Below are positions 1,356-9,986 of a DNA stretch of 10,359 nucleotides, piece after piece. The stretch is from an uncultured Thermoanaerobaculia bacterium (lineage in GTDB: Bacteria; Acidobacteriota; Thermoanaerobaculia; Multivoradales; JBCCEF01). Position 1 is the stretch's first letter; every line of letters starts with the position of its first letter. Both the position numbers and the translations under genes were made by a program. Under the pieces are notes generated by a model. That model was given only the letters and a program-made list of their open reading frames with translations, did no database searches and was not told the DNA's origin. The stretch covers positions 1 to 10,359 of the forward strand of contig CAZNIX010000144.1 in assembly GCA_964573125.1 (NCBI GenBank). The letters are read 5' to 3'.

Positions 1356-1589
1356 ATGAGCACGCCCGTCGATCGCCAGCCCTCGGAGGCCGAGCTCGAG
1401 GAGTGGCGGCGCGAATTCGAAGCCGCCGCCCGCCGCCCCCTCGAGACCCGCCTCCGCTACGCTTTCATCAAGACCTACAAGCCCGTCCTCGACGACGCCC
1501 GCTACCGGTCCTTCGACAGCACGGCCGAGTACCGCGCCTGGTGCGAGGAAAACCTGCCGAGCTGGCTGGGCTATGGCCGCTCCATTTGA
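1356..1589 (+). CDS. Small 77-aa hypothetical protein, the upstream partner of the nucleotidyltransferase gene. An alternative in-frame GTG start lies at 1338.
   Basis: ATG at 1356 and TGA at 1587-1589. GC3 bias is very strong, typical of genuine coding sequence in this genome. The product is MSTPVDRQPSEAELEEWRREFEAAARRPLETRLRYAFIKTYKPVLDDARYRSFDSTAEYRAWCEENLPSWLGYGRSI. The 3' end overlaps the next gene's ATG (1573) by 17 nt, which suggests translational coupling. I recognise no family. Confidence 0.5.
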   Translation: MSTPVDRQPSEAELEEWRREFEAAARRPLETRLRYAFIKTYKPVLDDARYRSFDSTAEYRAWCEENLPSWLGYGRSI

Positions 1590-2043
1590 ATACCGGCAGG
1601 CCGAGGAGATCCGGGACGCCCTGGCGCGCCACGGCGTCCGCTACCTGTTCATCGGCAAGTCGGCCGCGATCCTGCTCGGGTTCCCAGACACCACGCAGGA
1701 CGTCGACCTCTTCGTCGAGAAAGACGGGGACAACCATGCGGTCCTGGTGCGGGCGCTGGTCGACCTTGGCTTCGACCTCACCGATCGTGAGCGCCAGGAG
1801 GTCCTGCGCGGCAAGGACCTCGTGCAGCTCAAGAACGGGCCGTTCGACGTCGATCTCGTGTTCGCGCCCGACGGGATCGAGAGCTTCGAAGCGGCGTGGC
1901 GGCACCGGGTCGAGATCGAGGGCTTCCCGGTCTGCCACCTCGACGACGTCATCGCCAGCAAGGTCGCGAGCAACCGCGTCAAGGACCGTGAGTCGCTGCC
2001 GCGGTTACGCGCGTTCCGCGATTACCTGCGGCGCAGCGGGTAG
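1573..2043 (+). CDS. Minimal nucleotidyltransferase (Pol-beta superfamily) fold protein, 156 aa.
   Basis: The N-terminal region is LFIGKSAAILLGFPDTTQDVDLFV, which fits the hG[GS]x9-13 DhD nucleotidyltransferase signature (GKS ... DVD). A later acidic strand, FDVDLVF, could supply the third carboxylate. The C-terminal segment HLDDVIASKVASNRVKDRESL resembles helper helices in minimal-nucleotidyltransferase families. The ATG overlaps the stop of the preceding small gene. GC3 bias is strong. Confidence 0.65.
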   Translation: MAAPFEYRQAEEIRDALARHGVRYLFIGKSAAILLGFPDTTQDVDLFVEKDGDNHAVLVRALVDLGFDLTDRERQEVLRGKDLVQLKNGPFDVDLVFAPDGIESFEAAWRHRVEIEGFPVCHLDDVIASKVASNRVKDRESLPRLRAFRDYLRRSG

Positions 2044-2706
2044 CGCGGCGAGCCGCCGCGGCGCCGCGCGGATCTCGGGCACCTCGACGATGCGCACCCC
2101 CGCGGGCGGATGCTCGACCGCCTCGACCAGCGCAGCGACCATCGCGGCGAGCCGGACCAGGCCAAGCCGGCGGGCGCCGGCGCGGGTCGGGGGCAGCAGC
2201 TCGAGCAAGCCGTAGGCGGGGAGCAGGGCGTAGGCCCAGCGATGGCCGGGGCCGAGCACGTACCACGGCCGGAGGAAGGTGGTGGCGAGGCCGGTGGCGC
2301 GGATCGCCGCCTCGCCCTCCGCGCGCGCCGTGAGGTAGGCGCGCATCACCGGCGCCGGCTGCGCGACGCTGACGTAGACCACGTGGCGCACCCCGGCCGC
2401 GGCCGCCACGGCGGCCGACTCCCGCGCCGAGACCAGGTCGACCTCCCGGAACTGCCGCGCCTTCGAGGGGTTCGGCTTGGGCGTGCCGACGAGCTGGACG
2501 AGGGTGTCGGCCGGCGGTATGGCGGCCTCGAAGGTGCGGCGGTCGAGGGCGTCGCCGGGGACGACCTCGCAGCCGGGCGGGAGCTTCGCCTCCGCGCCCG
2601 GCCGGACCAGCGCGCGGACGGCGTGCCCCCGCGCGAGCAGCTCCGGGATCAGCCGCCGGCCGAGGTAGCCGGTGCCGCCGGTGACGAAGACGTGGCGGGG
2701 CGGCAC
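2005..2706 (-). CDS. NAD(P)H-binding atypical SDR / NmrA-like epimerase-dehydratase family protein, 233 aa.
   Basis: The N-terminus is MPPRHVFVTGGTGYLGRRLIPELLARGHAV, a Rossmann TGGTGxxG motif. Codon bias is good. Its start lies 6 nt downstream of the truncated-haemoglobin stop, consistent with an operon. Its 3' end overlaps the convergent plus-strand nucleotidyltransferase gene by 39 nt. Confidence 0.8.
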   Translation of the reverse strand: MPPRHVFVTGGTGYLGRRLIPELLARGHAVRALVRPGAEAKLPPGCEVVPGDALDRRTFEAAIPPADTLVQLVGTPKPNPSKARQFREVDLVSARESAAVAAAAGVRHVVYVSVAQPAPVMRAYLTARAEGEAAIRATGLATTFLRPWYVLGPGHRWAYALLPAYGLLELLPPTRAGARRLGLVRLAAMVAALVEAVEHPPAGVRIVEVPEIRAAPRRLAALPAAPQVIAERA

Positions 2707-2712
2707 GTCGGT

Positions 2713-3183
2713 TTACGGCGCCTCGACGATGTCCGCCTTGAGCGTCGACACCACCGCCAGCAGCTCGTCCTTCTCGGCTTGCGGCACCTTGAACTTGTCG
2801 AGCGTCGCCACCAGGTGGGCGACCGCGGCGTTCCACTGCGCCTCGGTGATGCCGAGCCCGGTGTGGGAGGTCTTCATGTCGCGGCCGGTGTAGACGCAGG
2901 GGCCGCCGGCGGCGGCGCAGAGCTGCTCGACGACGAGCTGGCGGATGTGTCCCTTCGAGTCGTTGGAGTGGCCGGCGAAGAAGCGCGCCAGCGACGGGTC
3001 GGCGAGCAGCCGGCCGATGAAGTCGTCGGTCACCGCGGCGATCGCGTCGTAGCCGCCGAGGCGCTGGTAGAGCGAGGGCTTCTCATGGTGGTCGGCACGG
3101 ACCGCCGCCGGCGCGGCGGCGAGGGCGAAGGCGACGACGGCGAGGGTCGCGAGAGCGAATCGGGACGTGCGGGCGCTGAGCAT
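2713..3183 (-). CDS. glbN: Group I truncated haemoglobin (2/2 Hb, trHbN-like) with an N-terminal signal peptide, so probably periplasmic or secreted.
   Basis: SLYQRLGGYDAIAAVTDDFIGRLLADPSLARFF ... GGPCVYTGRDMKTSHTGLGIT matches the trHbN pattern (LYERLGG...AI..VVDDFY.R...D..L..FF ... GGP..YTG..M...H.G.GIT), with the proximal His in KTSHTG. The N-terminus MLSARTSRFALATLAVVAFALAAAPAAVRA looks like a signal peptide. A strong SD (GGGGAGGAGG) sits 5-6 nt upstream of the ATG at 3183. Confidence 0.85.
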   Translation of the reverse strand: MLSARTSRFALATLAVVAFALAAAPAAVRADHHEKPSLYQRLGGYDAIAAVTDDFIGRLLADPSLARFFAGHSNDSKGHIRQLVVEQLCAAAGGPCVYTGRDMKTSHTGLGITEAQWNAAVAHLVATLDKFKVPQAEKDELLAVVSTLKADIVEAP

Positions 3184-3348: not shown

Positions 3349-6330
3349 CTACGGCGTGGTCGACGACCACGACGAAACGTCGCCGCTCTCGAAGCCGTCG
3401 GCGAAGATGAGCGCCTCGACGGTCGAGAACCGCCGCGCGACCCGGGTGACGTTGCCCTGGTGGTCGGCGACCTCGGCGGAGAGCGTGGCGGCGGTCAGCT
3501 CGGGGAGCGGCTGGGACAGCAGGATCGCGTAGACCCCGGGCGCCTGCTCGACCGCGAGGTCGGCCAGCTCGGCGCCGGGCGGGCGGCCCTCGACCGGCAA
3601 GTCGGCGGTCAGAGACAGCGTCGCGAGATCGACCCCCGAGTTGGCGTCGGCGACGCCGACCCGCAAGAGAAACACCGGATCGGGGTTGAAGCCCAGGCGC
3701 GGGACGCTCACGTGGAGCGTTGGCTTGAGGTCGTCGAGGAACCAGCCGAAGCCCGGGCTGCCGTCGGTCACGGCGGTGTCGATCGGGCAGCCGAGGTCGA
3801 TCCAGCGCGCGAACGTCATCTTCTCGTCGATCGAGAGCGGCGGCACGCCGCTCCCCGGCGGCGGCATGATCGTGCCGGTGTAGTCGAGGTCGGCCTCGTT
3901 GGGGTCGGCGCCGGGCGGCAGGGTGTTCGGGTCGCCGGGCACCGACTCGGTCGGGTGGTCGGCGTTGGTCCAGCCGTCGAAGCGCTGGCCGAAGACCTTC
4001 CAGGCGAGGAGGCTCCGCCGGCTCTGGAACCGCCGCACGTAGCGGCTGGCGTTGGTCTGCCGCCAGGTGCCGTTCCCGATCACCGGCGGGTGGCCCCACT
4101 GCGCCGGGTCGTCGTCGCAGAGGCGCTTGTAGTCGCCGGGGAGGCCGCCGTAGAGCGCGAGGTCGTCGAGCACGAGGTTGCCGCTCGGCGCCGCCGCGGC
4201 GTGGCACGCGCCGGTGCACGAGCGCTGGAGGAGCGGGCGGACGTCCTGGTAGAACTCGACGTCGACGACCGGCGCCGGCACCACCTCGAGATCGGGCTGG
4301 CCGCCGGCGTCGTAGGAGACGAGCGGCGTCACCGTCGAGAGGTCCCAGACCGGAAAGCCCGGCTGGCCGGCGGCGGTGTCCTCGAACGCGAGCGGCTGCT
4401 GGCTGTGGGCGTGGCAGCCGCCGCAGTTCGCGCGCACCTCGCCCGGCCGCACCTGGTGCCAGGTCTGCGCCATGTTGAGCACCATGCCGTTGCGGTCGAG
4501 GGTCTGGAACGTGAACGGGGTGTCGGCCGGCACCTTGACCAGGAAGCTGGTGTCGGGGTTGCCCTCGGGGTCGAGGACCGGCTGGCCCTGGCCGTCGAAC
4601 TTGCGCACCGGGATCTCGCCGAGGATGCGGTGGCGCTCGTTGGCGTGGTTTGAGAAGTGCTGCCCCTCGTTGGGGCCGTAGCTCCGGTGGGTGTTGGGCT
4701 CGAGCGCGACCAGGCGGATCGCCCAGATCGCGGAGTTCGCGTACTTCCCTGCGTCCGCGCCCTGGTAGTCCCAGTTGCTCGACTGGCCGTTCTCCGAGGT
4801 GTTGAAGGCGTCGAGGCCGTCGAAGGTGTCGGCCCACGGCGTCACCCAGCCGGGGAAGCTCTCGCGCTTGTAGAGGCTCGAGGTGCCGACCAGGCCGAAC
4901 GGCGTCCCCGCCGGCAGCTCGGGGTGGAGCGTGCCGTCCTCGGGGAGCCAGGGGATCGCCGCCGGCTCGGCGACGCCGTGCACGGCCGCGTAGGGCACGA
5001 CCGCCCGCGGCCACGCCTCGTTGTAGGCCGGGTCGTTCTTGAGCAGGACCAGATCGGTGGGCGACCAGACCGGATCGCCGCCCGGGACCAGGTAGAGGCC
5101 GCTGTCGTAGTAGGGGAGCGGCGTCGGCCGGTCGAGGTCGTTCGCGGGCCCCGGCGTCCACGCCGCGAGGAGGTCGCCGCCCGGCGCCGCCGACGGGTGG
5201 GTGAACTTGCCCACCCTCACGCCGCCGGCGCCGGCCGGCGCCGCCTCGTCGTCGCCGTGGGTCAGCGGCGAGATCGAGATCATCCCGCGCGGCGTGAACC
5301 CCATCTGGAACGGGTAGAAGAGGCCGTTGCCGATCGTGCGGTCGATCGCCGGGTTCTCGCTCGGGAACGCCGAGTGGAACGGCGGCTCGCCCGGCGGCGG
5401 CGCGGCCGGGAAGCGGTAGAGCGCGCCGAATCCGTTGTTGTTGAGGTTGTAGTAGTCCTCGACCACGAGGTCGCCGTCGCCCATCTGGGTCATGAAGTGG
5501 AACGCCGACGGCTGCTTGAACGCGCTGACGAGCGGCCCCCAGCTCCGGCCGTCCGGGTAGATCGTCCAGATCCCCCACAGGCGCCGGTCGCGCAGCCCCT
5601 GGCTCTCGTAGGAGGAGAACGCGATCCGCCCGTCCTGGAGGATCGTCGGGTGGAGCGCGCTCCCGATCGTCATCGGCGCGATCGGCGTGACGTTGGCGCC
5701 GTCCTCGTCCATCACGTAGAGCTGGAGCGTCGGCGCGGTGAAGCTCCGCGGCGGCGTGAAGCCGTTGCGGTTCGAGCTGAACGCGACCTTGCCGCCGGGG
5801 AGCGGGCAGGGGCCGAGGTTGAGGATGCCGTAGCCGAGGCGGTTGAAACCGGCCGGCGGATCGAGCGGGTTGGTCTCGTCCCAGATGCCGGCGCCGGTGT
5901 TGGGGGTGAACTCGCCGTGGGTGAGCTGCTCGACCTGGCGGCTCGCGAGGTGGATGCGGAAGACGTCGGCGCCCAAGAGCGGCAGCTCGTCGCGCTGCGG
6001 GTTGGTCTGGGTCAGGTCGTGGAAGAGCGCGTAGTAGACCCACTGGGCGTCGAACGACACGAACGGGTCGGTCACCGAGCAGACCGTGCAGTCGACGAGC
6101 AGCTCCTCGCTCCCGTCCGGGTGGAGCAGCACGAGATCCGCCCCCGGCTCGGCGCGCGCCGGGTGAAAGACCTCGGGCCAGGTCGTGTTGTCGAGGTCGC
6201 CGTAGCGCGGCTGGCGGACGTAGACGACGTCGTAGGGAACGGGCGGCTGGGCGGCGGCCGGGACGGCGAGAGCGAGGGCGGGGCCGGACGCGAGGGCGAG
6301 GCGCAGGACGCGCGAGAAAAACAGCTTCAT
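3349..6330 (-). CDS. Large secreted multidomain protein, 993 aa: an N-terminal PD40/TolB-like beta-propeller, a central CXXCH site, a Planctomycete-cytochrome-C (PSCyt1)-like segment carrying CX3CH, and a C-terminal ADGFESGD tail.
   Basis: The signal peptide is MKLFFSRVLRLALASGPALALAVPAAAQ. The SD GGAGGT lies 6 nt upstream of the ATG at 6330. PD40-like blades include GGKVAFSSNRNGF, DGRIAFSSYESQG and YPDGRSWGP. NCGGCHAHS (CGGCH at nt 4411-4425) is a canonical c-type haem-binding CXXCH. VEFYQDVRPLLQRSCTGACHAAAAPSGNLVLDDLALYGG ... MPPPGSGVPPLSIDEKMTFARWIDLGCPI (nt ~3781-4260) follows the PSCyt1 pattern (F..DV.PIL...C..CHG...L.LD ... MPP...L...E...L..WI..GA), but with CTGACH (CX3CH, nt 4201-4218) in place of CXXCH. 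The C-terminus ends ...ALIFADGFESGDVSSWSSTTP. Coding bias is strong throughout. Confidence 0.85.
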   Translation of the reverse strand: MKLFFSRVLRLALASGPALALAVPAAAQPPVPYDVVYVRQPRYGDLDNTTWPEVFHPARAEPGADLVLLHPDGSEELLVDCTVCSVTDPFVSFDAQWVYYALFHDLTQTNPQRDELPLLGADVFRIHLASRQVEQLTHGEFTPNTGAGIWDETNPLDPPAGFNRLGYGILNLGPCPLPGGKVAFSSNRNGFTPPRSFTAPTLQLYVMDEDGANVTPIAPMTIGSALHPTILQDGRIAFSSYESQGLRDRRLWGIWTIYPDGRSWGPLVSAFKQPSAFHFMTQMGDGDLVVEDYYNLNNNGFGALYRFPAAPPPGEPPFHSAFPSENPAIDRTIGNGLFYPFQMGFTPRGMISISPLTHGDDEAAPAGAGGVRVGKFTHPSAAPGGDLLAAWTPGPANDLDRPTPLPYYDSGLYLVPGGDPVWSPTDLVLLKNDPAYNEAWPRAVVPYAAVHGVAEPAAIPWLPEDGTLHPELPAGTPFGLVGTSSLYKRESFPGWVTPWADTFDGLDAFNTSENGQSSNWDYQGADAGKYANSAIWAIRLVALEPNTHRSYGPNEGQHFSNHANERHRILGEIPVRKFDGQGQPVLDPEGNPDTSFLVKVPADTPFTFQTLDRNGMVLNMAQTWHQVRPGEVRANCGGCHAHSQQPLAFEDTAAGQPGFPVWDLSTVTPLVSYDAGGQPDLEVVPAPVVDVEFYQDVRPLLQRSCTGACHAAAAPSGNLVLDDLALYGGLPGDYKRLCDDDPAQWGHPPVIGNGTWRQTNASRYVRRFQSRRSLLAWKVFGQRFDGWTNADHPTESVPGDPNTLPPGADPNEADLDYTGTIMPPPGSGVPPLSIDEKMTFARWIDLGCPIDTAVTDGSPGFGWFLDDLKPTLHVSVPRLGFNPDPVFLLRVGVADANSGVDLATLSLTADLPVEGRPPGAELADLAVEQAPGVYAILLSQPLPELTAATLSAEVADHQGNVTRVARRFSTVEALIFADGFESGDVSSWSSTTP

Positions 6331-6572: not shown

Positions 6573-7910
6573 ATGCGAACCTTCGCCCTCGTCTCGTGCA
6601 CCCTGGTCACGCTGCTCGCCGCCGCGGCGCCGGTCTCGGCTGCCGGCACCCTCTACGGCGTGTTCTTCGACACTGCGGTCTCGGAAGAGACGCTCTTCGC
6701 GGTCGATCCCGCGACCGGCGCCCTGACCCCGCCCGGCGCGGGCATCGCCGACTGCTGCTTCATCGCCAGCGGGGTCTCCAGCCTCGATCCCGACGCCGGG
6801 GTCTTCTTCTTCATGGGCCGCCGGATGTCGGACGGTGCGGACGACTTCCGGATCTGGAGCCTCGACCTGGCGAGCGGAGCGGTGCTGGCCAACCCGCTGC
6901 TCCCGGCGGGCAACAACTACAACTTCCTGGAGTTCGATCCGTCGTCGGGGACGCTCTACGCGGTGGTGTTCGACACCGGGGCCGCCGAGGAGCGGCTGGT
7001 CGAGGTCGACCCCGCGACCGGCGCGCTGACCCCGATCGGCGCCGGCGTCGCCGACTGCTGCCTCATCCCGAGCGGCGTCTCCGCCCTCGACTCCGCGGGC
7101 GGCGTGTTCCACTTCGTCGGCCGCCGGATGTCGGACGGCGCGGACGACTTCCGGATCTGGAGCCTGGACCTGGCGACCGCGGCGGTGGGGGCCAACCCGC
7201 TGCTGCCGGCGGGCAACAACTGGAACTTCCTGGAGTTCGATCCGTCGTCGGGGACGCTCTACGCCGTGGTATTCGACACCGTGGCCGCCGAGGAGCGCCT
7301 GGTCGAGGTCGACCCCGCGACCGGGGCGCTGGGGACCGTCGGCGCCGGGATCGCCGACTGCTGCTTCATCTCGAGCGGCGTGTCGGCGCTCGACCCGGGC
7401 GACGCCGAGTTCCACTTCGTCGGCCGCCGGATGTCGGAGCCGGACGACTTCCGGATCTGGAGCCTCGGCCTCGCGACCGGCGCGGTGGCCGCCAACCCGC
7501 TGCTGCCGCCGGGCAACAACCACAACTTCCTCGAGTTCGACCCCGACGCCGGGCCGCCGGGGCCGATCGAGGTCGCGATCGACGTCAAGCCCGGGAGCTT
7601 CCCCAACAGCGTCAACCCGCGGAGCAACGGCGTGATCCCGGTCGCGATCCTGACCACCGAGAGCTTCGACGCGCTGACCGTCGATGCCGCGACCCTGCGC
7701 TTCTCGGGTCCGGCCGGCGCCCCGATCGCCCACGCGGCACCGCACCCGGAGGACGCCGACGGCGACGGCGACACGGACCTCGTCGTCCACTTCCGCACCC
7801 GCCAGACCGGGATCGCCTGCGGCGACACCGAAGCGACGCTGGTCGGCGCCACCCTCGGCGGCGACCCGATCGCGGGGAGCGACAGCATCCGGACCGTCGG
7901 CTGCTCGTAG
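6573..7910 (+). CDS. Secreted tandem-repeat protein, 445 aa: a signal peptide, three 101-aa repeats each with a vicinal Cys-Cys, and a C-terminal ~115-aa domain carrying an Asp-rich Ca-binding-like loop.
   Basis: The SD GGAGG lies 7 nt upstream of the ATG at 6573. The signal peptide is MRTFALVSCTLVTLLAAAAPVSAAG. The repeats are GTLY(G/A)VVFDT...VDPATGAL...GAG(I/V)ADCC(F/L)I.SGVS.LD....F.F.GRRMS...DDFRIWSL.LA.GAV.ANPLLP.GNN.NFLEFDP. The C-terminal domain is IDVKPGSFPNSVNPRSNGVIPVAILTTESFDALTVDAATLRF...PEDADGDGDTDLVVHF. I do not recognise the repeat family. Confidence 0.8.
   Translation: MRTFALVSCTLVTLLAAAAPVSAAGTLYGVFFDTAVSEETLFAVDPATGALTPPGAGIADCCFIASGVSSLDPDAGVFFFMGRRMSDGADDFRIWSLDLASGAVLANPLLPAGNNYNFLEFDPSSGTLYAVVFDTGAAEERLVEVDPATGALTPIGAGVADCCLIPSGVSALDSAGGVFHFVGRRMSDGADDFRIWSLDLATAAVGANPLLPAGNNWNFLEFDPSSGTLYAVVFDTVAAEERLVEVDPATGALGTVGAGIADCCFISSGVSALDPGDAEFHFVGRRMSEPDDFRIWSLGLATGAVAANPLLPPGNNHNFLEFDPDAGPPGPIEVAIDVKPGSFPNSVNPRSNGVIPVAILTTESFDALTVDAATLRFSGPAGAPIAHAAPHPEDADGDGDTDLVVHFRTRQTGIACGDTEATLVGATLGGDPIAGSDSIRTVGCS
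6645..7553 (+). repeat. Three in-frame tandem coding repeats of 303 nt (101 aa) at 6645, 6948 and 7251. Repeats 2 and 3 are about 85-90% identical at the nucleotide level, and repeat 3 carries a 3-nt deletion.
   Basis: Direct comparison finds GGGACGCTCTACGC(G/C)GTGGT(G/A)TTCGACACC recurring at 6948 and 7251. GCCGACTGCTGC recurs at ~6748, ~7051 and ~7354. GGCCGCCGGATGTCGGA...GACGACTTCCGGATCTGGAGCCT recurs in all three units. Confidence 0.85.
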
Positions 7911-8071: not shown

Positions 8072-8791
8072 ATGACCCCACGCGCCGCCCGCATCCTTCG
8101 CCGGCTCGCCCTCGCGGTCGTGCTCCTCCTGGTCGCGGCCCTCGCGGCGTTCACCTACATGGTCGGCGGCCCGCGCAACCTGATCGGCATGCTGCGCTAC
8201 GACCAGCGGGAGGAAGGCAAGCTCCAGGTCGGCGATCCGGCGCCCGACGTCCTGCTCACCGCGCTCGACGGAGCGCCCGATGCTCCGCTGCTCGCCGACC
8301 GCGACGGCAAGGCGCTGGTGATCGTCTTCGGCAGCTTCACGTGACCGCCGTTCCGGCGCTCGGTCGAGCGCCTCGGAGAGATGGCCGAGCGCTACGCCGA
8401 CCGGGCCGTCTTCCGCACCGTCTACATCAAGGAGGCGCACCCGGAGGACGAGTGGCAGATGGACAGCAACGAGGAGGAGGACGTCTGCTACCGCCAGCCG
8501 CGGTCGCTCGCCGACCGGCTGGCGATCGCGCGCGACTTCACCGCCCGCTTCGACTACCCGATCCCGCTGCTCGTCGACGGCCTGGACAACGCGGCGATGC
8601 ACCTCTACTCGGGCTGGCCCGAGCGCTTCTACATCGTCGGCGCCGACGGCCTGATCGCCTACAAGGGTGAGCCGGGGCCGTTCGGGTTCGAGCCCGAGGA
8701 GGTCGAGGAGTGGCTCGAGGCGCATCCACACGCGGCGGCACACCCACCCGCGGCGGCCGGCGCCGCCTCGGGCGAGGAGCCCGCCTCGTAG
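8072..8791 (+). CDS. Iodothyronine-deiodinase-like thioredoxin-fold selenoprotein, 239 aa, with Sec at residue 91 encoded by an in-frame UGA at 8342-8344 and an N-terminal membrane anchor.
   Basis: The ORFs ending at 8344 and starting at 8381 share one reading frame. Reading through the TGA gives ...KALVIVFGSFT-U-PPFRRSVERLGEMAERYADRAVFRTVYIKEAHPEDEWQ ... YPIPLLVDGLDNAAMHLYSGWPERFYIVGADGLIAYKGEPGPFGF. The deiodinase family active site is FGS(A/C)TUP(P/S)F, followed by VYIEEAHPSDGW and then PERLYII..GKIVY.GG.GP. The N-terminus MTPRAARILRRLALAVVLLLVAALAAFTYMV is a transmembrane anchor or signal. A SECIS-like hairpin begins 6 nt after the UGA. The gene stops at TAG 8789-8791. Confidence 0.75.
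8351..8378 (+). promoter_or_regulatory. Putative bacterial SECIS element (an mRNA hairpin directing Sec insertion at the UGA at 8342).
   Basis: GGCGCUC (8355-8361) pairs perfectly with GAGCGCC (8366-8372), giving a 7-bp stem around the apical loop GGUC (8362-8365). The stem extends by UUCC (8351-8354) pairing with GGAG (8375-8378) across a 2-nt bulge (UC, 8373-8374). The apical loop contains G and U and starts 18 nt after the UGA. That falls inside the 16-37 nt window used by bacterial SECIS models. Confidence 0.6.
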
Positions 8792-8832
8792 CGGACCGGC
8801 CGCCGCGCGGGGCGACGCGGGGCAAGAAAAAG

Positions 8833-8862
8833 GCCGCCGCCCCCCGGTGGGGACGGCGGCCG
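8833..8862. terminator. GC-rich hairpin between the convergent selenoprotein and SPFH genes. It is probably an intrinsic terminator, best oriented for the minus-strand gene.
   Basis: GGCCGCCG-C-CCCC / GGU / GGGG-A-CGGCGGCC forms an inverted repeat at 8833-8862. It is flanked on the plus strand by AAGAAAAA (8824-8831), which becomes UUUUUCUU immediately after the hairpin on the minus-strand transcript, 16 nt downstream of the SPFH stop. No U-tract follows on the plus strand. Confidence 0.5.
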
Positions 8863-8876
8863 AAATCACCTCCGAT

Positions 8877-9986
8877 CTACAGCAGCTTGACCACCCGCTC
8901 GGCGAGGCCGCCCTCGCCGAGGACCACGGTCAGGTTCGCCTTGCCGGCGACCTGCTCGAGGACCTCCAGCTCGCGCAGGCGCATCAGAGTCGGGTTCGAC
9001 TCGAAGATGCGGGCGGTGTTCGCCTGCGAGCGGATGGCGGCGGTCTCCTCGCGGCGGGTGACCAGCGTGGCCTCCGCGGCCTTCTTCGCCTCGGTCACCC
9101 GGTTGAGGATCTCCTTCATCTCGCCCGGCAGGATGACGTCGCGGATGCCGAGCGCGCGCACCTCGACGCCGAACGCCTCGGTACGCGCGCGCAGCTTCGC
9201 GGTCAGCTCGCCGGCGACCGCGTCCTTGCCCGCGAGCAGGCCGTCCAGCTCGCGGCCGCCGACCACCTCGCGCAGCGCGAGCTGCGCCTGGCGGTAGAGC
9301 GCCTGGGTGGCGTCCTCGACCTCGGTCGCGGCGCGCACCGGGTCGGCGACGCGGTACGCGACCAGCGCGTTGAGCCGCAGGGTGACGCGGTCGGCGGTCA
9401 TGATCTCCTGCCCGGAGACGTCGAGCGCCTGCTCGCGCAGGTCGAACGCGACCACCTTGACGTCGCCCTCGCCGCGCCAGAACGCGTGCTGGCCGGGCGG
9501 CAGCGTCGCGACGTGGCGGCCGTCCTGGAACAGTAGGCCGACCGCGCCCGGCGCGACCGCCGCGGTCTGGAGGTGCACCGCGGCGCCCGGGGCGCGCAGG
9601 ACGACCTGCAGCTCCGGGTGCTCGAAGCGCACGCCGCGGGTGTCGATCACCTCGGCGCGCACCTCGTGGAACACCGTCCACACCGCGTGCAGGCCGGGGC
9701 CGAGGACCGCGCGCAGGCGGCCGTCGATCCAGACCAGCGCCCGCTCGTGGTCGCCGAGGTCGAGCACCCGGGCGCGCTCGCCGAGCGCCCCCGAACGCAC
9801 GATCACCTCGAGGTCGCGGTGCTCGAGCCAGGGCTCGCGCACCGGGACCTTCTCGACCCGGGTCTCGAGCAGCGGGTCGAGCACGGGGTGCCGGCCGGGG
9901 TCGAGCAGGCGCCGGAAGACGCCGGCCTCGAAGACCAGGCCCACCTCGTGCTCGCGCACGCGGGTCCAGCCGATCGGAAAACGCAT
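8877..9986 (-). CDS. SPFH/Band-7 (stomatin/slipin-like) domain protein, 369 aa, with three ~55-aa N-terminal internal repeats.
   Basis: The SD GGAAGGAGGTG lies upstream of the ATG at 9986. The ORF-track start at 10328 is an Arg-rich over-extension. The SPFH core is DVSGQEIMTADRVTLRLNALVAYRVADPVRAATEVEDATQALYRQAQLALREVVGGRELDGLL ... GVEVRALGIRDVILPGEMKEILNRVTEAKKAAEA. The N-terminal repeats are LVFEAGVFRRLLDPGRHPV, LVWIDGRLRAVLGPGLHAV and LLFQDGRHVATLPPGQHAF. The stop is TAA at 8877-8879. Confidence 0.8.
   Translation of the reverse strand: MRFPIGWTRVREHEVGLVFEAGVFRRLLDPGRHPVLDPLLETRVEKVPVREPWLEHRDLEVIVRSGALGERARVLDLGDHERALVWIDGRLRAVLGPGLHAVWTVFHEVRAEVIDTRGVRFEHPELQVVLRAPGAAVHLQTAAVAPGAVGLLFQDGRHVATLPPGQHAFWRGEGDVKVVAFDLREQALDVSGQEIMTADRVTLRLNALVAYRVADPVRAATEVEDATQALYRQAQLALREVVGGRELDGLLAGKDAVAGELTAKLRARTEAFGVEVRALGIRDVILPGEMKEILNRVTEAKKAAEATLVTRREETAAIRSQANTARIFESNPTLMRLRELEVLEQVAGKANLTVVLGEGGLAERVVKLL

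Follow-up and report, generated by a model that had tools for sequence, protein, structure and literature searches.

In the 10,359-nucleotide contig CAZNIX010000144.1 from an uncultured Thermoanaerobaculia bacterium (assembly GCA_964573125.1; the whole contig is referred to below as the window), positions 8072-8791 form one gene of the T4_deiodinase family. This gene very probably encodes a 239-residue selenoprotein in which an in-frame UGA, codon 91, is read as selenocysteine (Sec) under the direction of an RNA hairpin located immediately downstream. An earlier note on this DNA had proposed a mis-split deiodinase-like selenoprotein with a hairpin of the selenocysteine insertion sequence (SECIS) type, and most of what it claimed is borne out by the comparative evidence described here, although the position and extent of the hairpin and the degree of resemblance to the animal enzymes had to be revised.

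The reading frame runs on the forward strand from ATG at 8072 to TAG at 8789-8791, a single frame of 239 codons whose lone internal stop is the TGA at 8342-8344. Under genetic code table 11 the list of open reading frames (ORFs) breaks this into two pieces, one ending ...VIVFGSFT* at 8344 and the other, 136 amino acids in length, beginning with ATG 8381. The mis-splitting is not confined to that list: gene calls of 90 and 136 amino acids are also found on two shorter Logan contigs that were assembled independently and match the window at 100% identity, and it is only from these and the window contig that the exact read-through protein is known. The sole database protein identical to the window product is a 136-amino acid stub (P0001, 100% identity). 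Read through, the sequence continues as FGSFT-U-PPFRRSVER, followed by VYIKEAHPEDEWQ and PERFYIVGADGLIAYKG. The GC contents at the first, second and third codon positions are 0.78, 0.46 and 0.91 upstream of the TGA and 0.74, 0.47 and 0.96 downstream, thus both halves carry the same coding signature. About 80 of the 106 relatives in protein databases are likewise C-terminal stubs of 131-167 amino acids, indicating that this selenoprotein gene is mis-split across public databases.

A scan of one genome per species identified at least 578 related loci, of which the best 80 were examined. These come mostly from metagenome-assembled genomes (MAGs) of Thermoanaerobaculia or other Acidobacteriota, with a few labelled Planctomycetota, and they are not copies of one sequence, being 55-67% identical. 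In all 80 the TGA is present at the same codon, in frame and with conserved protein on both flanks, and in all 80 it lies within a U-P-P-F motif; five further metagenome loci (L086-L090) also have TGA at the Sec codon. Full-length cysteine-containing homologues read FGS[FY]TCPPFR, with Cys in the same column as the TGA, as the earlier note had anticipated. One relative, P0012, was translated by the Joint Genome Institute (JGI) with Trp at the Sec position and was considered as a possible Trp form; this was rejected, as its own DNA reads TGA, translation of the gene fails to reproduce the stored sequence and the W is a translation-table artefact. Within the Sec forms, a sub-group comprising L053 and L071 (both Planctomycetota MAGs), P0066, P0070, P0078, P0090-P0093, P0102 and P0103 has an extra conserved C-terminal domain of ~130 amino acids after the deiodinase-like domain, with no Pfam match.

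Membership of the deiodinase family is clear. Profile searches were carried out with the read-through protein in which Cys replaced the stop, and Pfam PF00837 (T4_deiodinase) matched residues 45-217 with 112.7 bits against a cut-off of 27 (E = 2.2e-32), spanning positions 67-235 of the 237 in the profile. Among sequences of known structure, residues 53-219 matched mouse iodothyronine deiodinase 3 (Dio3, 4tr3; E = 4.4e-21) and Dio2 (9h48; E = 2.3e-20). Redoxin (PF08534, 21.6 against a cut-off of 26.6), AhpC-TSA (PF00578, 20.1 against 26) and Thioredoxin_8 all fell below their cut-offs. NCBIfam NF038285 (deiodinase_rel, 347 amino acids) scored 176.6 bits, under its curated cut-off of 250, with only profile positions 177-338 matched: the window protein lacks the N-terminal ~176 residues of this profile.

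For the fold comparison we used the AlphaFold model of P0002, a full-length Cys orthologue 58% identical to the window protein (predicted local distance difference test 92.3, predicted template modelling (TM) score 0.84, with a helix at residues 2-25). The nearest fold in the PDB is that of Dio3 (4tr3; TM score 0.80, root-mean-square deviation 1.8 Å, E = 1.5e-14, 34% identity), and Dio2 (9h48; TM score 0.83, 30% identity) ranks with it ahead of all others. Later matches, at ~4e-9, are ResA/TlpA-type oxidoreductases and 1-Cys peroxiredoxins, the E-values for the deiodinases being about five orders of magnitude better. As modelled for this orthologue, then, the fold is thioredoxin/peroxiredoxin-like with a deiodinase-type insertion. 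ResA, TlpA, CcmG, Etrx and the 1-Cys peroxiredoxins, the next-best structural neighbours, share with the window protein the combination of an N-terminal anchor and a thioredoxin fold, and ResA, Redoxin and AhpC-TSA give weak sequence matches only. The window protein differs from these oxidoreductases and peroxiredoxins in missing all of their family cut-offs, in lacking a CxxC motif and in possessing the Dio-type insertion.

Immediately downstream of the TGA, the window sequence can form a stem of 7 bp (8355-8361 with 8366-8372) closed by a GGUC loop (8362-8365), which taken alone folds at -14.3 kcal/mol. To see how much of this is conserved, we compared 79 distinct homologous segments in a gap-free alignment, numbering pairs from the U of the UGA as 1. 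RNAalifold returned one structure only, consisting of the inner 6 bp and the 4-nt loop. The covariation score of the full structure originally proposed was 0.153, whereas shuffled alignments gave 0.046, with 0 of 500 reaching 0.153, and controls slid along the alignment gave 0.048 or less. Much of that structure is stable across homologues (within the 6-7-bp helix, 85.7% of cells form pairs) but the 2-bp extension beyond it is paired in only 31.6% and the seventh pair is found in just 25 of the 79. Of the hairpin reported by the earlier note, the inner 6 bp of the stem and the GGUC loop thus stand; its bulged extension is not conserved and as such is probably not functional. The spacing of 6 nt that it gave has to be corrected as well, since the conserved stem begins at 8356, leaving 11 nt between it and A8344 of the UGA.

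Compensatory changes are seen in three pairs of the hairpin. Pair 18/27 is CG in 68 cases, GC in 14, UA in two and UG in one, and is broken in none. Pair 15/30 joins two Arg codons at their synonymous third positions, and here a G on the 3' side is always accompanied by C or U on the 5' side (15/15, Fisher p = 9e-9). The three covarying pairs change state between four and 24 times on the tree, pair 15/30 most often. On a neighbour-joining tree made without the hairpin, columns 15 and 30 each change more than ten times, so that the pattern at this pair does not reflect one inherited event. In the loop, the first three of the four nucleotides G21, G22, U23 and C24 are invariant (79/79). At the protein level the Sec forms all encode RR[SAQ]V[EDAG]R over the hairpin; most Cys forms differ (RRNT, RKEV, RDVY and so on), and in the one divergent Cys locus whose DNA was folded (L084, RRNTTTV) the hairpin is absent.

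A bacterial element with which to compare this hairpin is the SECIS of E. coli fdhF, the minimal form of which, a stem-loop of 17 nt, is placed 11 nt from the UGA and has a bulged U17 as well as G23 and U24 in its loop (PMC8659212). The window stem is likewise separated from the UGA by 11 nt and lies within the reading frame, and its GGUC loop has G and U at 22 and 23 where fdhF has G23 and U24. It differs in being a perfect, GC-rich stem of 6-7 bp with no conserved lower helix.

Several observations weigh against reading codon 91 as hairpin-directed Sec. The 5' arm (8355/8356-8361) lacks the bulged U17 that the E. coli SelB protein needs. The folding energy of 8336-8400 is unexceptional at the window's GC content of 73.5% (z = -0.86) and the minimum-energy fold is a different one; as single-sequence folding does not single out the hairpin, the support for it is comparative rather than thermodynamic. 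A search of Rfam with 8250-8500, at E-values up to 10, returned chance-level miRNA and sRNA matches only, with no SECIS family among them. In one Cys form with TGC at the critical codon (L083, positions 275-330; JGI 3300037479) a perfect SECIS-like hairpin is retained together with the RRSVER peptide, and conservation of the hairpin region could thus be partly at the level of the protein. This locus would also be explained if a Sec form had recently changed to Cys and its SECIS persisted as a remnant, a situation that has been described (PMC1794560). A search limited to the 10,359-bp window and 60 related loci found no selA, selB, selC or selD gene and no tRNA-Sec. All-against-all clustering of ORFs from 81 loci revealed no neighbour common to more than ten of them, so that gene context gives no functional clue; the large apparent neighbour clusters were rejected as shadow ORFs overlapping the selenoprotein gene itself. 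Finally, PMC1088965, PMC9312934 and PMC13188914 contain no biochemical characterisation of any bacterial member of the family.

Could the UGA be recoded, but as something other than Sec? Some bacteria possess selC* tRNA(Cys) opal suppressors together with a second SelB (PMC5389517), which would allow SelB-dependent insertion of Cys, whilst weakened termination at UGA might allow Trp or Gly to be inserted. The stored Trp of P0012 would have pointed the same way had it not proved an artefact, and the use of stop codons in the window does so too. The eight well-supported genes end in TAG (six) or TAA (two) and never in TGA, whereas TGA predominates among the stops of related loci (113/190, 59%), and L087, a syntenic relative of 86-90% nucleotide identity, has TGA at the ends of its orthologues of the hydrazine synthase (HZS)-like and Band_7 genes, at the positions where the window has TAG. 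However, a 77-amino acid ORF at 1356-1589 (third-position GC 0.90, as in coding sequence) does end in TGA, so that the deficit amounts to at most one in nine genes (binomial p ~0.005). TGA is probably still a stop in this organism, and the deficit may reflect chance or a lineage-specific avoidance or bias. Reassignment of TGA in this organism was judged unlikely, given the end of ORF 1356-1589 and the normal use of TGA stops in L087, and a clade-wide reassignment is excluded by the prevalence of TGA stops in related genomes. It is conceivable, though doubtful, that the near-absence of TGA stops marks a lineage-specific weakening of UGA termination that would favour Sec decoding. Against insertion of another amino acid, selC* has been reported in Firmicutes, Thermodesulfobacteria, Nitrospirae and Proteobacteria but not in Acidobacteria (PMC5389517), animal enzymes have Sec and bacterial Cys forms have Cys at the aligned position, and an fdhF-type hairpin is conserved. 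We consider non-Sec recoding highly improbable.

Still less probable is that the TGA is a true stop separating two independent genes, one for a 90-residue membrane peptide and the other for a 136-residue deiodinase-like C-terminal protein starting at ATG 8381. This matches what gene callers annotate, and TGA, to judge from ORF 1356-1589, probably works as a stop here. The 136-residue piece, however, would be missing half of the thioredoxin fold as well as the active-site motif, the Cys homologues are continuous, and the frame is maintained across the TGA at all 80 genome loci. The supposed start codon is also poorly kept: the codon equivalent to 8381 is ATG in 49 of 79 homologues and CTC, CTG, ATC, GCG, CTT or TTG, which are non-start or seldom-used start codons, in the other 30. 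Two genes would, in addition, leave the covarying hairpin without a role. That the locus is a pseudogene with a nonsense mutation is the least credible explanation of all: an otherwise intact frame does carry a stop, but the same 'mutation' would have to be shared by all 80 species-level genomes as well as by close relatives, with strong amino acid conservation and third-position GC above 0.9 in both halves. A true stop, separate genes and a pseudogene can in practice all be dismissed.

If UGA-91 is indeed read as Sec, what kind of protein results? The N-terminus contains a hydrophobic segment, noticed already in the earlier note, with a best 19-residue Kyte-Doolittle mean of 2.59 at residues 13-31, and homologues with readable N-termini have an equivalent K/R-rich and hydrophobic beginning. 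After this predicted anchor comes a conserved GPRN-IGMLRYDQR segment and then the catalytic domain. Alignment with Dio3, which was crystallised as a mutant with Cys at Sec170, shows conservation of Ser88 (Ser167 in Dio3), Thr90 (Thr169), Sec91 (Sec170), Tyr118 (Tyr197), Glu121 (Glu200), His123 (His202), Trp128 (Trp207) and Glu184 (Glu259). Tyr118, Glu121, His123 and Trp128 are invariant or nearly so across the family alignment. Their Dio3 counterparts, together with Ser167 and Thr169, have been assigned roles in the proton relay and at the edge of loop D (PMC11592359). Four Dio3 residues are not conserved: His219 is replaced by Pro143 (a Pro invariant in the clade), Arg275 by Pro201, Cys239 by Ile164 and Cys168 by Phe89. 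His219 is a relay residue and Arg275 the proposed substrate clamp (PMC11592359). The window protein contains a single cysteine, Cys139, in a V/I-C-Y motif that is present in every Sec-form locus read, whilst V or I replaces the Cys in the Cys forms P0013-P0015. Because there is no second cysteine, a selenenylsulfide between Sec91 and Cys139 would be the only possible internal redox pair, and Cys139 is a candidate for the resolving residue.

We propose the following mechanism. Like the fdhF SECIS of E. coli, the hairpin within the RRSVER codons would bring in SelB loaded with Sec-tRNA(Sec). In the product, a membrane anchor at the N-terminus would be followed by a catalytic domain resembling those of Dio2 and Dio3 in shape, in which Sec91 would lie beside a network of conserved residues (Ser88, Thr90, Tyr118, Glu121, His123 and Trp128). 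The electrophile attacked by the selenolate might be an aromatic ring halogen or the oxygen or sulfur of a peroxide or disulfide, after which the oxidised selenium would be resolved, probably by Cys139, and then re-reduced by a thiol system. As far as the sequence allows a judgement, thyroid hormones are unlikely substrates, because the equivalents of Dio3 Arg275 and His219 are missing; Zhang et al. (2005) likewise doubted that thyroid hormones were substrates of the bacterial proteins they described (PMC1088965). That the clade represents a Sec-dependent, membrane-bound reductive dehalogenase of natural halogenated phenolics, as opposed to a general peroxidase, is conceivable though rather doubtful.

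The description of the window protein as being like the animal enzymes is therefore accurate only in part. In common with Dio1-3 it has the FGS-x-T-U-PPF motif, the Ser/Thr/Tyr/Glu/His/Trp network, a putative catalytic Sec and a single predicted N-terminal transmembrane segment, and the modelled orthologue shares the fold of Dio2 and Dio3. The thyronine-binding residues are absent, however: the proposed clamp of Dio3 is missing from the window protein, as are one relay residue and the cysteines of Dio3, and loop D in the window clade has a conserved signature of its own, SN...VCY.QP. The SECIS elements of the animal genes are located in the 3' untranslated region, whereas the window hairpin is of bacterial type and lies in the coding region.

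Bacterial deiodinase-like selenoproteins are themselves established, and the earlier note had mentioned reports of them. Zhang, Fomenko and Gladyshev (2005) described them from the Sargasso Sea, together with Cys homologues and bacterial SECIS elements (PMC1088965), and they are listed in later reviews with the motif given as UxxC (PMC9312934, PMC13188914). The Sec-decoding trait is also known in Acidobacteria (PMC1794560, Table 2). The window protein resembles these proteins in belonging to PF00837, in having an active-site UGA in frame and aligned with Cys, in its presumed redox function and in having a SECIS-like hairpin directly downstream with a G in a small apical loop, a criterion used in PMC1088965. 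In kind, then, it is not new: family, Sec/Cys pairing and SECIS were all described in 2005. What is new is this member, or sub-clade, of the family. The 2005 family consisted of four sequences from marine metagenomes, whereas the present clade is large, comes mostly from Thermoanaerobaculia MAGs and has the Sec codon in all 80 loci; where the reviews give UxxC it has U-P-P-F, with no Cys at +3, and it has in addition the predicted N-terminal anchor and the conserved distal Cys139. The coordinates of the relevant features are collected in Table 1.

Table 1. Features of the deiodinase-like gene and its surroundings in the window
Feature	Position	Strand	Remarks
Probable selenoprotein coding sequence, complete	8072..8791	+	239 codons, Sec codon 91, stop TAG 8789-8791
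Hydrophobic N-terminal segment, ~residues 9-31, preceded by four Arg	8096..8164	+	Predicted single membrane anchor or signal-anchor
Probable Sec codon UGA, residue 91, in FGSFT-U-PPF	8342..8344	+	Aligns with Cys of homologues and with Dio3 Sec170
Window-specific extension of hairpin	8353..8376	+	Seventh pair G8355-C8372; C8353/C8354 with G8376/G8375 across a UC bulge
SECIS-like core, 6-bp stem 8356-8361 / 8366-8371 and GGUC loop 8362-8365	8356..8371	+	Encodes R95-R100 (RRSVER)
Internal Met104 codon	8381..8383	+	Taken by gene callers as start of a 136-amino acid 'gene'
Y118-I-K-E121-A-H123-P-E-D-E-W128 block	8423..8455	+	Equivalent to Dio3 Tyr197, Glu200, His202 and Trp207 (4tr3 alignment)
Cys139 (TGC), sole cysteine of the protein	8486..8488	+	Candidate resolving thiol
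Terminator-like 13-bp GC-rich hairpin	8832..8861	.	In convergent gap between selenoprotein gene and Band_7 gene
Window gene ends	1310-1312, 2041-2043, 2005-2007, 2713-2715, 3349-3351, 7908-7910, 8789-8791, 8877-8879		

The terminator-like hairpin that follows the gene has its T-run on the minus strand, and one such element was observed against 0.1 expected in shuffled sequence. Elsewhere in the window, one gene (3349-6330, minus strand) encodes a protein of 993 amino acids in which PF18582, the hydrazine-synthase-alpha middle domain, is recognised (E = 2.6e-14) alongside CxxCH-like motifs (CGGCH, CTGACH). Its relatives at E <= 1e-100 number 2,790, of which almost all are unnamed or 'hypothetical' and many belong to Thermoanaerobaculia; the search found no full-length relative above 75% identity. 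In the two closest relatives, of ~90% nucleotide identity (L087 1824-4795 and L088 295-3266, both minus strand), the orthologue is called as two ORFs of 346 and 644 amino acids that overlap by 4 nt in different frames; set against the intact window gene, this points to a frameshift or to faulty assembly. At 2713-3183 (minus strand) a bacterial-like (truncated) globin, signal-like at its N-terminus, adjoins an NmrA/NAD(P)H-binding protein (2005-2706, minus strand), and the same pair is found beside the HZS-like gene in L087. The gene at 6573-7910 (plus strand) encodes a secreted-looking protein of 445 amino acids (DUF6923) with three internal repeats that are ~87% identical in DNA, for example 6932-7252 and 7235-7553. 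At 1356-2043 (plus strand) the 77-amino acid ORF mentioned above overlaps the start of a 156-amino acid ORF by 17 nt; neither has a Pfam or NCBIfam match above cut-off.

The repeated annotation error has left this selenoprotein largely invisible in annotated MAGs, and selenium use there may be undercounted as a result. A large clade with the active-site motif and the fold of Dio2 and Dio3 would offer a tractable bacterial system in which to study deiodinase-type chemistry outside thyroid signalling. Should the dehalogenase activity considered above turn out to be real, the animal deiodinases would have in these proteins their closest counterpart among bacteria and perhaps also their evolutionary origin.

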